A DNA stretch of 64,000 nucleotides, from the NCBI GenBank assembly GCA_964360975.1, contig CAYHYY010000001.1, forward strand, positions 959 through 64,958. Direction: 5' to 3'. Within the stretch, counting starts at the first letter, position 1. Every line of letters begins with the position of its first letter. Below, piece after piece: positions 29,329-60,384 of this stretch. The notes under the pieces were generated by a model that was given only the letters and a program-made list of their open reading frames with translations, made no database searches and was not told the DNA's origin. The translations under genes and the position numbers were made by a program. This stretch comes from an uncultured Candidatus Saccharibacteria bacterium (GTDB lineage Bacteria; Patescibacteriota; Minisyncoccia; Phycocordibacterales; Phycocordibacteraceae).

Positions 29329-29532
29329 ACTACCCCGCTACTACCATATATGGTAGTGATGCGGCCTCCGCCGAGATTCTCTTGACGGTACTCCGTCATA
29401 GAGAATCCAAGTGTGGTCGCCCTGCGCGAGCCACCGGGCGCGCGTGGCGACGATTCACCCCCGTGCCAGAGGCACGGGGCACTCTCGTCGTCCAGCCAGT
29501 AGAAATCTCAAGCCGGTGCGCTTGAGATTTGC
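29329..29532. other. Hairpin-dense non-coding stretch of at least five strong stem-loops between convergent genes. Possibly a structured RNA.
   Basis: Stem-loops ctacca-tata-tggtag, gattctct[tgacgg-tact-ccgtca]agagaatc, gtcgcc..ggcgac, ccccgtgcc-aga-ggcacgggg, and aaatctcaag-ccggtgcg-cttgagattt. No ORF. Confidence 0.35.
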
Positions 29533-30890
29533 ATTATCGTGTCGGCAATGTGCGAGCCCGCAGTTCCGAAATTAGGCAAATACGAATTCACCAGCGTTAC
29601 TCTCTTTTCAGCATTTTGTTCTGGGTCGTTCATGTAGCTCCCGATGATTGACCTGAACGTATCTTTGTCGTATGCAACATCAACGCCACCTGTTTCGAGA
29701 GCCTTTCGAATAAAAGAGAACGTGAAGAGTAACCTGATTACTGCGTCGTCGTTTTCTGCATGATCCAAACCAGACAGTCCCGTGTAAATCATCGGCTTGT
29801 TCAAAACTGCCGCGTCGAGCGCAAGTGAGGAGAAAATACTCAAATTGACGTCAGCAAAGTTGAGAAGATTCGCGACGTGATCTTTGTTTGGGAGTGTGTC
29901 TGCGGATTCTAGCAAGAGATTCGGGAACTCTTGCTGGAGAGATATATACGCCTCGGGAATACGTTGCGTTGGTCCAAACCGAACGAGGACCATGCTCTCA
30001 GGGATTCTCATCGCTTTGATGTCTTCAAGGAGCAGCTTCGTGACGTCCAACTGATGTGGGTGCCAATTGTCCGTTCCGACGAAATACGTGATGAGCTTCT
30101 TTTGAGGATCAGCGCCGATTGATTTGAAAAGTTCTTCACGGGTAGCGGATGGAGAAAACTTTGCGTAGGTATCGTATCGCTGACATCCCTCGACATGTAT
30201 CAGTTCTGCATTGATCGACTTAAGATCAACGAGTTCCTGCTTCATCAGGTCATTCCAGACAAAGATGTGTGCCTGCCGCGGCACCGAGTACAGGCGATTT
30301 TCAAAATAGTTCCATGGCAAGTCGACGACGAATACGGGAACTCGATGTTTTCTACCAACGGCAAGCCACGCGATATCGTGTGCATCATGAGAAAGTGTAC
30401 CCACCACAATACCGTCAGGAGAGTGCTCGCGAAGTAGTCCTTCGAACGATGGCTCTGAGATTGCATACTCCTCGAGGTAGTCAAATAGATTCACCAAAGT
30501 ACTTCGAAAAGGCCTGAGAAGCATGCGCAAGAATTTCATGACTCGATCCTTCGGGGGGAGAGAGCGAATCAGTGCGTTTGCGGTCGTGCTCATTTCAACC
30601 AATTTCGCGTGTTCGTGCTTTGCGGTATCAAGTGCCAATGCATGTTCACGGACCCGGCTCGTTTTTACTAATGACGCGGGCAGTGCGGGCAGTGCTTGGT
30701 GGACTACATTTTCGCCAGAAAACTCCTTCGTGAAGTCTTCATCATCCACAAATGGAGAAAGGATCACGATCTTCGACTTTGTTTTCAGAGACGAAAAAAT
30801 GTCTGAACGAAGAATGGCGTTCGTGCGGTACGCGGTCGGAATAATGAAAAAAAAGGTCTTCATGAAGCGGCGCGATTGTACCACGCTCAT
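29508..30890 (-). CDS. TagF/TagB-like GT-B fold protein, paralog 1 of 5 (putative polymer glycosyl- or glycerophospho-transferase)
   Basis: Shares with 33205, 36414, 48570 and 58828 an N-terminal ILxI..P motif, HSPDGIVVGT, WNYF, VEGCQRYD (GYPxxD-like), and C-terminal SSLALDAAVLNKPMIYTG. Confidence 0.45.
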   Translation of the reverse strand: MSVVQSRRFMKTFFFIIPTAYRTNAILRSDIFSSLKTKSKIVILSPFVDDEDFTKEFSGENVVHQALPALPASLVKTSRVREHALALDTAKHEHAKLVEMSTTANALIRSLPPKDRVMKFLRMLLRPFRSTLVNLFDYLEEYAISEPSFEGLLREHSPDGIVVGTLSHDAHDIAWLAVGRKHRVPVFVVDLPWNYFENRLYSVPRQAHIFVWNDLMKQELVDLKSINAELIHVEGCQRYDTYAKFSPSATREELFKSIGADPQKKLITYFVGTDNWHPHQLDVTKLLLEDIKAMRIPESMVLVRFGPTQRIPEAYISLQQEFPNLLLESADTLPNKDHVANLLNFADVNLSIFSSLALDAAVLNKPMIYTGLSGLDHAENDDAVIRLLFTFSFIRKALETGGVDVAYDKDTFRSIIGSYMNDPEQNAEKRVTLVNSYLPNFGTAGSHIADTIMQISSAPA

Positions 30891-30939
30891 GCCAGTGTAC
30901 CAGTCGCCAGATACATCATTTGGCGTATAATCGAGCTAC

Positions 30940-57828: not shown

Positions 57829-58797
57829 ATGGCTTTTGTCGATGAATTGAAGATTTCCGCGAGCGCAGGGAGAGGCGGCGATGGCGTCGTCCGCTGGCTT
57901 CACGAGAAAGGGAAGGAGTTCGGTGGACCCTCAGGAGGGAACGGTGGGCGCGGGGGCGATGTCATTTTTAAGGCAATTCGAGATTTAAATGTTCTCTCTC
58001 GTTACAAAGGTCGTTCAAAATTCAAGGCTGGACGCGGCAATGATGGTGGTAGTAAGAATATGTTTGGGAAAGCAGGGGAATCAGTCGTCATCAATGTACC
58101 AGTGGGATCTGTTATTACATTGCAATCGAGCGGGCGCAAATTTGAATTGCTTAAGGATGGTGAGGAGGTTATAGCATTGCACGGTGGCAATGGCGGGCGC
58201 GGGAATGCTGAATTTAAATCGTCAACAAATCAGTATCCGGAAGAATCGACGCCAGGTAAGGAGGGAGAGTCGGATTCATTTACGATAGAACTGAAGCTCA
58301 TCGCCGACATCGGACTTATTGGGCTGCCAAACGCAGGGAAATCATCGCTTTTGAATGCGCTCACGAACGCAGGAGCAAAGGTGGGAGATTACGCGTTTAC
58401 TACGCTAGACCCCAATCTCGGCGCATTCTATGGGTACGTCATTGCCGATATTCCAGGGCTTATTGAGGGTGCTTCGTCGGGAAAAGGGCTTGGAGATAAA
58501 TTTTTAAGACACGTCTCGAGAACGAGTATTCTGGTTCACTGTATTTCGTCTGAGCAAGAGGATATGTGCGCAACGTACCAATCAATTAGAAATGAATTAA
58601 AGTCGTTTGATCCGTCACTGCTCGACAAGCGCGAGATAGTGATGATCACGAAATCCGATCTTGCGTCAGAGGCGAAATTGGCTGAAAAAGTCCATGCGTT
58701 GAAAAGTTGTGGCGTGGATGCAGTGCAGGTCACGGTTCTTGACGATGCTGAGGTGAAAAAACTTTCTGATATGCTCACCCATACGCTGAGAAATTGA
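57829..58797 (+). CDS. obg: GTPase Obg (short form without the C-terminal TGS domain)
   Basis: Gly-rich N-terminal Obg fold (GGNGGRGGDVIF). G1 GLPNAGKSSLL, G3 DIPGLIEG. Confidence 0.85.
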   Translation: MAFVDELKISASAGRGGDGVVRWLHEKGKEFGGPSGGNGGRGGDVIFKAIRDLNVLSRYKGRSKFKAGRGNDGGSKNMFGKAGESVVINVPVGSVITLQSSGRKFELLKDGEEVIALHGGNGGRGNAEFKSSTNQYPEESTPGKEGESDSFTIELKLIADIGLIGLPNAGKSSLLNALTNAGAKVGDYAFTTLDPNLGAFYGYVIADIPGLIEGASSGKGLGDKFLRHVSRTSILVHCISSEQEDMCATYQSIRNELKSFDPSLLDKREIVMITKSDLASEAKLAEKVHALKSCGVDAVQVTVLDDAEVKKLSDMLTHTLRN

Positions 58798-58827
58798 CAA
58801 ATTTGTTTCAAGTGTTATACATTCCGC

Positions 58828-60384
58828 ATGAGAGAACCCACGCCGGATAAGCGATTTGAAAAAAAGAATCCAAGGAAGATCTCTCAGGAGATAAGTTCCA
58901 AGCGTAGTGAGAGGCTGACACAATTCTTTGACCCAATAATAAAGCAGTTGGATACAGAATTGCGCTTACTGATTCTTTCTGAATTCTTCTATTTTGATAC
59001 ACATGAAAGAAAATCGAAGATTGTAATGGCGCTGAGTGAAATTAGGACCATAGTTGATCTTGCAGCACGCACGCTCACAGAGGAACGAGTAGGCTACATG
59101 CCTTCGCAAGAACTTCTTCACGAGCTCAGCAGAAGAGAACGAGGACTGCTCGCATACTTAATGAGCCCGATGTATGAGAAGCCAGACGAGAAACTACACA
59201 TAATCGAAATTAAGCATCATGAGTCATCACCTGAAGGTCGTGTGACGCTGGTGAGCCGCTTTCCTGGAAATGCGAATATGATGATCCCCGTTATTGATGA
59301 ATTGATGGGGGATGTAGGGAGGCCTGTGCAGGTGACCGCAATCACTGATGGCAAGGCTCGCAAATCACTTGAAGAGAAGTACAAAGGCAGGACAATGAAT
59401 AAGCAAACCGATAATGAATTTTTTGCGCTCAATCATTATGAGGCTGTTGGCGGAGCCGATGTAGTTTTTCTTGATGCTGCATCGGGGGATACGCTCTCAG
59501 TGTTCATGGCGGCGACATTCGCGGCTGAAAAAAAAGGGAAGGCACCAAAAATCATTATCGTCCATGACGCATACACATCCACGATGCGCATCTACGACAC
59601 GCTCAAGGAGTGGAATCTGTTGGAGCCAGATCTCATTAGCGCGATCTGTGTCATGGACGAATGGCAGAAGGAACAAATCACTAAAAAATACCCGGAGCTT
59701 AAGGAACGAATCGAAATTACTGGACAGCCCCTGTTTGATTCCATGAATGAGAGCGAGGTCAAAAGTACGAGAAAGAGAGTCCGATCCACACTTGAGTTAA
59801 AAGAGGGGGACGTACTCGTATCGGTCATGTTTACCGCTGATCCACGGGTAGGTGAAATGGAGGCGATGGCTGATGAACTTTCTAAGCTTGACGCGTCACA
59901 TCAGTCCAGGCTTTGGATCGCGGTGCGCAGACACCCAAGGAATAAACCGAGCTATGAAGCGCTAAAGGAGATCTTTTCTTCAAGAGGTTTGCGTACTAAA
60001 GATACGATGAGTGGGGAAAGAAAATTTGAAACCGAGGAGGTGCGCGTTGCCTCTGACATAGTATTGAACACCCTATCAACCGAGGGCACGGCGGCGGTTG
60101 CATATGGCATTCCTGTTGTGCATGTCGTTGATGAGAAGTTTGGCGAGTTTCCACCCGATACGATGAGAGACGTGCCTCCTGCAGAAAGTGGCGCCGCGGT
60201 TCTTCTCGAGCATGTGGGCGATCTCGTCAAAACGATCGAGGATCTCATGGATCCAGAGAGTGAAAGATCAGTATCAGTTCGCGAAGCTCAGCAAAACCAT
60301 CCGCTTCGCGCGCAAAGAGGCAAGAGTGCTAAAAATGTGGCTCATGTGGCTCGCAGGCTCCTTGGGCACCCTGCAAAGGCTTGA
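58828..60384 (+). CDS. TagF/TagB-like GT-B fold protein, divergent paralog 5 of 5
   Basis: EPDLISAICVMDEW, ITGQPLFD, and LSTEGTAAVAYGIPVVHV match the family pattern. The N-terminus is divergent and basic. Confidence 0.4.
   Translation: MREPTPDKRFEKKNPRKISQEISSKRSERLTQFFDPIIKQLDTELRLLILSEFFYFDTHERKSKIVMALSEIRTIVDLAARTLTEERVGYMPSQELLHELSRRERGLLAYLMSPMYEKPDEKLHIIEIKHHESSPEGRVTLVSRFPGNANMMIPVIDELMGDVGRPVQVTAITDGKARKSLEEKYKGRTMNKQTDNEFFALNHYEAVGGADVVFLDAASGDTLSVFMAATFAAEKKGKAPKIIIVHDAYTSTMRIYDTLKEWNLLEPDLISAICVMDEWQKEQITKKYPELKERIEITGQPLFDSMNESEVKSTRKRVRSTLELKEGDVLVSVMFTADPRVGEMEAMADELSKLDASHQSRLWIAVRRHPRNKPSYEALKEIFSSRGLRTKDTMSGERKFETEEVRVASDIVLNTLSTEGTAAVAYGIPVVHVVDEKFGEFPPDTMRDVPPAESGAAVLLEHVGDLVKTIEDLMDPESERSVSVREAQQNHPLRAQRGKSAKNVAHVARRLLGHPAKA

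Follow-up and report, generated by a model that had tools for sequence, protein, structure and literature searches.

Five proteins encoded in a 64-kb window from an uncultured Candidatus Saccharibacteria bacterium (the window being the whole stretch analyzed, 64,000 nucleotides, positions 959 to 64,958 of contig CAYHYY010000001.1) are divergent, anciently duplicated members of one large family with a GT-B (glycosyltransferase type B) fold, an offshoot of the TagB/TagF/TarL family whose members lie near NeuB and cytidine monophosphate (CMP)-sugar synthetase genes in many phyla. We put at about one in two the probability that the five are soluble cytoplasmic GT-B transferases that move CMP-activated ulosonic or nonulosonic acids onto a cell-surface glycan, a reading drawn mainly from gene association. 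Homology, fold, duplication age and gene association are direct observations of this analysis. The five open reading frames (ORFs), called A to E here, are as follows.

29508..30890 (-): paralog A, 460 amino acids; the public gene call starts at M10 and gives 451 amino acids
33205..34623 (+): paralog B, 472 amino acids; immediately upstream of the ABC exporter gene
36414..37781 (+): paralog C, 455 amino acids; start overlaps the stop codon of the ABC exporter gene
48570..49973 (+): paralog D, 467 amino acids; start overlaps the stop codon of the upstream CMP-sugar synthetase gene
58828..60384 (+): paralog E, 518 amino acids, a distant member; between obg and the second NeuB gene

Each of the five ORFs is intact and lies where a first-pass annotation of the same sequence had placed them. 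The ATG of D at 48570 is the start used by the public gene call (P0001, 467 amino acids, 100%); an earlier TTG at 48537 is possible. The five proteins are predicted to lack transmembrane segments. With BLASTP and phmmer, A to D are mutually significant at E-values of 1e-6 to 2e-18, with 21–28% identity over 140–366 residues. Paralog E showed no pairwise match to A–D with these programs and was recovered by a profile hidden Markov model (HMM) of A–D at an E-value of 2.6e-5. Aligning E and its one homolog to the D orthogroup with hhalign gave a probability of 96% and an E-value of 4e-9 over residues 240–515 of E and 148–465 of D, with the motifs of both in register (PKIIIVHD/PDLVIAPD, EWN/SWDN, GQPLFD/GAPQFD, VRRHP/VRYRP, NTLSTE/NTISTF). 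Paralog E is homologous to A–D by profile and by fold, despite having no pairwise match. In a six-frame translation of the 64 kb the A–D profile finds only E beyond A–D, which leaves the window without a sixth copy. We rejected the idea that the shared motifs are a compositional artefact, given pairwise E-values down to 1e-18, orthologs across genomes and confident structural models.

The AlphaFold model of D, with a predicted local distance difference test score (pLDDT) of 92.6, has a two-domain GT-B fold, and its nearest solved structures are uridine diphosphate (UDP)-N-acetylglucosamine (GlcNAc) 2-epimerases/NeuC and TagF/TarL. In the model of E, confidence is good for the C-terminal domain (pLDDT above 85) but poor over the first 135 residues; this protein has about 110 additional N-terminal residues, predicted to be helical at low confidence. 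It also adopts a two-domain GT-B fold and retrieves the same set of structures as D, the two-domain matches over ∼300 residues scoring 22.3 for MGD1, 22 for the epimerases, 21.0 for TarL and 20.9 for TagF. Foldseek searches against the PDB returned generic GT-B matches only and were not discriminating.

Glyphos_transf (PF04464) was the only Pfam-A family matched by the five at an E-value of 0.1 or lower. Its gathering cut-off of 22.1 bits, applied to whole-protein scores, was exceeded by D (34.4) and B (33.4) and not reached by A (17.3) and E (15.0), while C had no match in Pfam-A. In the same scan of all Pfam-A, none of the five matched Capsule_synth (KpsS/KpsC, PF05159) or a sialyltransferase family. 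The five also matched neither Epimerase_2 (PF02350) at an E-value below 0.1 nor the NCBIfam NeuC and WecB models at an E-value below 0.01. Among 103 diverse family members, 90 match Glyphos_transf at an E-value of 0.01 or lower (best, 2.7e-17), 11 match Epimerase_2 weakly and one matches Capsule_synth (0.0026). A profile of these 103 sequences aligned the C-terminal domain to TarL at an E-value of 3e-7, spanning the GxP(R)xD loop, the (K/R)xHP strand, the S-S/T...D/E helix, KPxI and the C-terminal DGxxxxR tail. The broad profile was needed to reach TarL because one built from the D orthogroup alone, which found nothing significant among PDB sequences, is too narrow.

The family thus combines a GT-B fold with a C-terminal donor domain like that of TagF and TarL (GYPRxD, KxHP, SS...E/D, DGxxxxR). 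The GT-B, TagF-like character proposed at first pass is borne out by the models of D and E, the TarL alignment and the Glyphos_transf matches of the wider family. Judged by sequence, the affinity is to TagF/TarL over the epimerases, at the edge of Glyphos_transf, and we regard the five as a divergent offshoot of the TagB/TagF/TarL family.

The first-pass annotation could not assign a named CAZy family, and indeed none of the named CAZy or curated families takes the five in; NCBIfam and most Pfam scores are under their cut-offs. The NCBIfam model BFO_1060 (NF046086), with a curated cut-off of 200 bits, gave 38.9 bits for A, 33.5 for D, 28.4 for C and 27.5 for B, no match for E, and 84.5 bits for a family member from Pseudotenacibaculum (Bacteroidota; P0283). 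The surface carbohydrate biosynthesis model TIGR04396 (cut-off, 125) scored E at 21.1 bits and the Pseudotenacibaculum member at 29.2 bits, both below the cut-off, and a WaaA model scored E at 15 bits. Of the curated thresholds of named families that we tested, all failed except that of Glyphos_transf, passed by two of the five.

The motifs listed at first pass are real, although they are looser than written and only partly literal. WDNL is exact in C and D and becomes WDHL in B, WNYF in A and WNLL in E; D and E have an exact GxPxFD, which the other three match more loosely; the N-terminal ILxIxP occurs only in A, B and D; and all five carry the S-T...D-A-A...P-h-I element in a looser form. 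The variants of the three central motifs are as follows.

A: WNY (for WDN), GCQRYD, VRFGP
B: WDH, GYPFLD, IRPYP
C: WDN, GAAVFD, VRPHG
D: WDN, GAPQFD, VRYRP
E: WNL, GQPLFD, VRRHP

In D numbering, W182 and G224 are invariant across the family, and P148, A168, D183, D229, R294, P372, R435, D447, G448 and R453 are at least 90% conserved. W182-D183 stands ∼42 residues before GxPxFD. From this spacing alone, W-D may occupy the site of the TagF/TarL catalytic His. In TagF we take that N-domain residue to be H444; for TarL, H300 is read from the title of entry 8VA1 ("H300N"). We found no TagF-type catalytic His in the N-terminal domain of the family, a region that could not be aligned to TagF/TarL.

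The duplications are old, as had been proposed. A has orthologs with 39–42% identity in 2 loci, B with 41–59% in 7, C with 37–49% in 4 and D with 46–57% in about 20; orthologs of D in many Parcubacteria span 43–58% identity. E has one ortholog only, 35–36% identical and in the same syntenic position after obg in a Kaiserbacteria genome, and this is its one detectable homolog among 5.8 billion proteins. Orthologs score 218–591 bits, versus 34–118 bits for the second-best (paralogous) match, and because orthologs in other genomes outscore the paralogs within the window, the copies are old, separately conserved lineages. In a neighbor-joining tree, the phylogenetic check suggested at first pass, A, B, C and D fall into different clades that each include sequences from at least six other genomes, and the A–D orthologs lie in other Patescibacteria. 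Recent duplication or an assembly artefact was rejected, since the paralogs share 21–28% identity and orthologs in other genomes 37–59%. The gene order of one Patescibacteria locus (L002) runs GFO_IDH, A(−), ABC, C, D, CTP_transf_3, Wzy_C-TPR, MurB, with the 42%-identical A ortholog adjoining the GFO_IDH gene. A protein identical to D is present in a Hainich groundwater 0.1-µm metagenome, and the named close homologs of D are all from Paceibacterota/Parcubacteria, which places the host among the Patescibacteria. Five distinct specificities would be a reasonable inference from five separately conserved orthogroups.

Searching 1.84 billion 50%-identity representatives with the A–D profile returned 8,187 proteins at an E-value of 1e-3 or lower and 2,501 at 1e-30 or lower. 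Many of them are 850–1,700 amino acids long and contain two or three family domains. Metagenome representatives of that length (P0124, P0125, P0131, P0152) either have several family domains or join the domain to GT4, GT2 or a methyltransferase, and so resemble multi-enzyme glycan polymerases. Among GTDB species genomes we found 282 relatives. The carriers include Patescibacteria, Pirellulaceae and other Planctomycetota, Gemmatimonadales, Acidobacteriota, Saprospiraceae, Omnitrophota, one Deltaproteobacteria metagenome-assembled genome (MAG) and one Methanosarcinales MAG. Two carriers that are not labeled as MAGs, Roseateles cavernae YIM B04394 and Pseudotenacibaculum sp. MALMAid0570, are apparently isolates. 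Public names of members are limited to "CDP-glycerol glycerophosphotransferase family protein" (CDP, cytidine diphosphate) or "hypothetical," and several carry the JGI name "TagB/SpsB family" (COG1887). A search from the Bacteroidota member returned only those names or hypothetical proteins and none named BFO_1060, a cluster look-up of family members yielded no names, and we found no studied member of the family.

For the gene neighborhoods we used 81 loci, 48 from Patescibacteria and 33 from other phyla, many of them on truncated contigs, so that neighbor counts are minimum figures. A 21-kb locus holds one copy in 44 cases, two in 17, three in 16 and four in 4, and all but one of the multi-copy loci are in genomes labeled Patescibacteria or Saccharibacteria. 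Two to four copies per locus are therefore routine in Patescibacteria and several copies are not special to this genome, which weakens the surprise of finding five. This does not turn the five into representatives of a well-characterized multi-copy family, because the family is not well characterized.

The strongest functional evidence is a gene association that holds across phyla. A CTP_transf_3-type CMP-sugar synthetase gene lies within 10 kb of the family member in 34 of the 48 Patescibacteria loci and 22 of the 33 others (56/81), and NeuB lies within the same distance in 32 and 19, respectively (51/81). The synthetase is within 2.5 kb of 10 of the 21 D orthologs, and the E ortholog of Kaiserbacteria is near cupin, CTP_transf_3 and NeuB genes. 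The Roseateles cluster (L072) contains NeuB, NeuC, a CMP-synthetase, a GT4, an acetyltransferase, the family member (9995–11359) and a GT2-like gene. Its NeuC is genuine (337 bits against a cut-off of 236), and its presence in one cluster with a family member argues against the latter being the NeuC step. Fusion to other glycosyltransferase domains and the presence of several copies per locus favor a transferase over a precursor enzyme.

The whole window is a glycan island, and Pfam and NCBIfam scans confirm that the five genes are set among NeuB and CMP-sugar synthetase genes and an ABC exporter. Three modules, each of which could make a keto-deoxy sugar acid, stand next to family members, together with genes for export and transfer. 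The genes of module 1 were assigned with both Pfam and NCBIfam.

25489–27342 (+): module 1, NeuB-cupin fusion
27349–28071 (+): module 1, CTP_transf_3-type CMP-sugar synthetase
28064–29158 (+): module 1, GFO/IDH oxidoreductase
34627..36417 (+): fused HepA/MsbA/PglK-type ABC exporter, the presumed flippase/exporter of the lipid-linked glycan
45709–46911 (+): module 2, enolase-superfamily sugar-acid dehydratase
46896–47804 (+): module 2, ApbA/PanE-type reductase
47813–48577 (+): module 2, second CTP_transf_3 CMP-sugar synthetase
51025..53211 (+): Wzy_C membrane protein of O-antigen ligase/O-oligosaccharyltransferase type with C-terminal TPR, 728 amino acids
60438–61610 (+): module 3, NeuB
61591–62133 (+): module 3, cupin
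62118–62819 (−): module 3, HAD phosphatase

A is convergent to module 1, D overlaps the stop codon of module 2, E is directly upstream of module 3, and B and C flank the ABC exporter. The island also encodes six GT4, two GT2 and one GT9 glycosyltransferases, two AsnB-type amidotransferases, many methyltransferases, nucleoside diphosphate (NDP)-sugar epimerases, GMD, RmlC and PGM/PMM. We found no DegT aminotransferase, NeuC or PseG in the 64 kb, so the NeuB product may be Kdn-like (3-deoxy-D-glycero-D-galacto-nonulosonic acid, a deaminated form) rather than pseudaminic (Pse) or legionaminic (Leg) acid. The cupin and HAD genes likewise suggest a Kdn-type route that would not need NeuC.

Besides its C-terminal cupin fusion, the NeuB of module 1 has ∼115 unassigned N-terminal residues. 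The D orthologs in L002 (12730-17669) and L003 (13588-19355) have a synthetase paired with an HpcH/HpaI pyruvate aldolase, two 2-hydroxyacid dehydrogenases and an SDR protein. Module 2 (45709-48577) and these sets could make a 2-keto-3-deoxy sugar acid without NeuB, and their position beside D and its orthologs hints at a CMP-activated short ulosonic acid.

We infer the donor, the catalytic residues, the acceptor and the division of labor from these observations, and the following scheme would fit them. The TarL-like C-terminal domain would bind a cytidine-nucleotide donor, namely, a CMP-activated 3-deoxy-2-ulosonic acid, either a nonulosonic acid from the two NeuB modules or a shorter keto-deoxy acid from the dehydratase module. 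The N-terminal domain would bind the growing lipid-linked glycan, and the near-invariant Trp-Asp of WDN together with the conserved Arg of V-R-x-(H)-P could take over the role of the TagF histidines. The ancient orthogroups would differ in the acceptor to which each adds an ulosonic acid or in the linkage formed. Once complete, the glycan would leave the cytoplasm through the neighboring ABC transporter, and the Wzy_C-TPR protein would then attach it on the outer side of the membrane as the final transfer step.

Several points weigh against transfer of CMP-ulosonic acids by all five. Gene association cannot tell whether it is an ulosonic acid or some other group that is transferred onto the glycan; the nearest CMP-synthetase gene lies a median of 4.5 kb from a family member, so that direct adjacency is uncommon, and the 81 loci were gathered with D-family patterns, which biases them toward D-like members. 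The C orthologs adjoin NDP-hexose genes (epimerase and RmlC) and not CMP-synthetases. No alignment of the WDN region reached the part of TagF/TarL with the catalytic His: the HMM alignments to TarL and Cps3D all begin after that region, and in the N-terminal domain there were only weak alignments to a GT28-type glucosyltransferase and to 2-epimerases. A (WNY; WSY in its ortholog) and E (WNL) do not have the near-invariant Asp, and the His of the HP motif is retained only in C and E, so some copies may use another base or another donor or be inactive. Matches to BFO_1060 fall far short of the 200-bit cut-off of that family. In Bacillus subtilis, deletion of spsB, which encodes a TagB-domain protein, left spore-surface Leg unreduced, meaning that SpsB is not needed for Leg transfer (PMC7439481).

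The SpsB result, the Glyphos_transf matches of B, D and most diverse members, and the alignment of the C-terminal domain to TarL, a CDP-ribitol binder, would all fit true TagB/TagF-type phosphotransferases that add glycerol-phosphate, ribitol-phosphate or another CDP-activated alcohol phosphate. We nevertheless consider such an activity quite unlikely. None of 48 neighboring ORFs scanned in the window matches the Pfam families of CDP-glycerol or CDP-ribitol synthesis (TagD, TarI, TarJ), which argues against a literal TagF function, and the sole cytidylyltransferases are the two CTP_transf_3 enzymes, of the PseF/KdsB/NeuA type. We found no TagF-type catalytic His in the N-terminal domain, whose invariant motif is W-D (not aligned to the His site), and across phyla the family is tied to NeuB and CMP-synthetase genes. 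Among the donors suggested at first pass, nonulosonic or Kdo-like (3-deoxy-D-manno-oct-2-ulosonic acid) sugars are best supported by gene context, and polyol-phosphate has no support in the window, judging by the scan of the 48 ORFs. The five might also be ordinary GT-B enzymes that use UDP-, guanosine diphosphate (GDP)- or deoxythymidine diphosphate (dTDP)-sugars to build the backbone of a glycan that merely also holds ulosonic acids. NDP-hexose genes abound in the island (GMD, RmlC, several epimerases and PGM/PMM), PimA, MGD1 and MshA score nearly as well in the fold searches, and the neighbors of the C orthologs point the same way. However, the sequence affinity is specific to the C-terminal domain of TagF/TarL, which use cytidine nucleotides, at least eight GT4, GT2 and GT9 enzymes in the island are already available for NDP-hexoses, and CMP-synthetases are enriched near family members in unrelated phyla too, which leaves this alternative unlikely.

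An NDP-sugar hydrolase or 2-epimerase of the NeuC/PseG/LegG type, supplying the hexose substrate of NeuB, would fit the gene association equally well, and such precursor enzymes also have a GT-B fold. It is very improbable here in view of the missing or weak Epimerase_2 matches, the genuine NeuC alongside the family member in Roseateles, the fusions to GT2 and GT4 domains, the window cupin and HAD genes with their suggested NeuC-free route, and a copy number of two to five per locus, which one precursor step would not readily account for. A mixed situation, in which B, C and D are active and A and/or E are catalytically altered or inactive and kept as scaffolds or acceptor-binding partners, would account for the loss of the Asp from A and E and for the single detectable homolog and poorly predicted N-terminal domain of E. 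Yet both genes are intact and have syntenic orthologs in at least one other genome (A, 42%; E, 35–36%), the E ortholog P0121 keeps W-D, and in the A clade a conserved E-N-R three residues downstream could supply a base, and we find this alternative improbable. CMP-ulosonic acid transfer remains our preferred reading.

A bolder version of the CMP-ulosonic acid reading seems doubtful to us, if worth stating. The "WDN" proteins would then be an unrecognized multi-phylum glycosyltransferase family without a CAZy family, a TagF-fold lineage in which the catalytic His gave way to Asp and CDP-polyols to CMP-ulosonic acids. At least five ancient Patescibacteria orthogroups would build an ulosonic-acid-rich, teichulosonic-acid-like surface polymer, with D transferring a new short 3-deoxy-ulosonic acid made without NeuB (by the dehydratase here and by the HpcH/HpaI aldolase in L002/L003) and then CMP activated. 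The literature searched contained no usable evidence for TagF-like genes making Kdn polymers in Streptomyces.

The only related proteins with experimental data are those of Tannerella forsythia, Tanf_01245, TFUB4_00887 and BFO_1060 (NF046086), putative Pse/Leg transferases that are likewise TagB-like GT-B proteins encoded with NeuB-type and CMP-synthetase genes. Knock-outs of these TagB-like proteins lose the terminal Pse or Leg derivative, evidence that is genetic only (PMC5420450). The link to the present family is weak: the BFO_1060 model is matched by the window proteins around the WDN region at 27–39 bits, and its family name is on none of their listed public homologs. SpsB (COG1887, "TagB/SpsB family") is likewise a TagB-domain protein, encoded in the legionaminic acid (sps) operon, so the closest genetic evidence is mixed, the Tannerella proteins speaking for ulosonic acid transfer and SpsB against it.

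TagF, TarL and TagB (PF04464; 3L7I, 8VA1) differ from the family in several ways. Only B and D pass the Pfam model, the N-terminal domain is not alignable to theirs by sequence and carries W-D(-N) with no TagF-type catalytic His found, and in place of nearby CDP-polyol synthesis genes, of which the scan detected none, there is the link to CMP-ulosonic acid genes. To UDP-GlcNAc 2-epimerases/NeuC (PF02350) the likeness is structural only, with none of the five matching PF02350, and the multi-copy and fused architectures misfit a precursor enzyme. Cps3D (8QOY) and Bcs3 (8A0C) are TagF-like multi-enzyme polyol-phosphate polymerases of Gram-negative capsules, whereas the window proteins are stand-alone and single-domain. 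WaaA (GT30), KpsC/KpsS (GT107), WbbB (GT99), KpsS1 (GT118), KrkA (GT140) and the bacterial sialyltransferases (GT38/52/80) would share the proposed CMP-ulosonic donor class; the known ulosonic acid transferases and the family have GT-B-derived folds, with HP-type phosphate-binding motifs in some cases. By function, the five would resemble sialyl-, Kdo- and pseudaminyl-transferases.

The enzymes that attach bacterial sialic acid-like sugars (Pse, Leg, Kdn and relatives) have for the most part yet to be identified (PMC5420450). The locus is ordinary for Patescibacteria, and the five are a variant on a known kind rather than a novel type of system. Their family, large, misnamed and unstudied, offers a credible answer to the question of the nonulosonic acid transferases. 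If the proposed function is true, it would provide thousands of candidate transferases in Patescibacteria, Planctomycetota, Gemmatimonadota, Acidobacteriota, Bacteroidota and others and would correct the widespread database name "CDP-glycerol glycerophosphotransferase family protein." It would also mean that ultra-small bacteria of the candidate phyla radiation (CPR) set aside a region of over 60 kb, in this case all 64 kb of the window, for an acidic surface glycan, a plausible mediator of CPR attachment to host cells. The function is directly testable because Roseateles cavernae and Pseudotenacibaculum sp. appear to be isolates.

Homologs of the Wzy_C-TPR protein occur in 23 of the 48 Patescibacteria loci versus 1 of the 33 loci from other phyla, and this protein is a candidate for attaching the glycan to protein or cell wall in an organism without an outer membrane. 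The genes murB, secA and obg (53422-58797) lie inside the island, between Wzy_C-TPR and E, and the Kaiserbacteria locus (L083, 2696-7947) has the same order of Wzy_C-TPR, MurB, SecA, Obg and E ortholog.

A D-2-hydroxyacid (phosphoglycerate/glyoxylate) dehydrogenase homolog at 23575-24555 (-) recurs beside CMP-synthetase/NeuB genes in 23 of the 48 Patescibacteria loci and 15 of the 33 others, with instances in L071 (6937-7923), L072 (6189-7130) and L002 (14739-17669). This enzyme might provide the ulosonic acid with a glyceroyl or lactoyl substituent.

Between an epimerase gene and the genes for a methyltransferase and paralog B, positions 31971-32426 encode a 151-amino-acid Trp-repressor-type helix-turn-helix protein with no homolog in the 81 related loci. 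The GT4-rich left part of the island holds a lamin-tail-domain (LTD) protein (709-1488) and a 567-amino-acid protein with no family match (8575-10278). At 41336-43267, a 643-amino-acid fusion joins an N-terminal NAD (nicotinamide adenine dinucleotide)-dependent epimerase/dehydratase to a C-terminal GT2, and homologs of this fusion lie near three of the four C orthologs.

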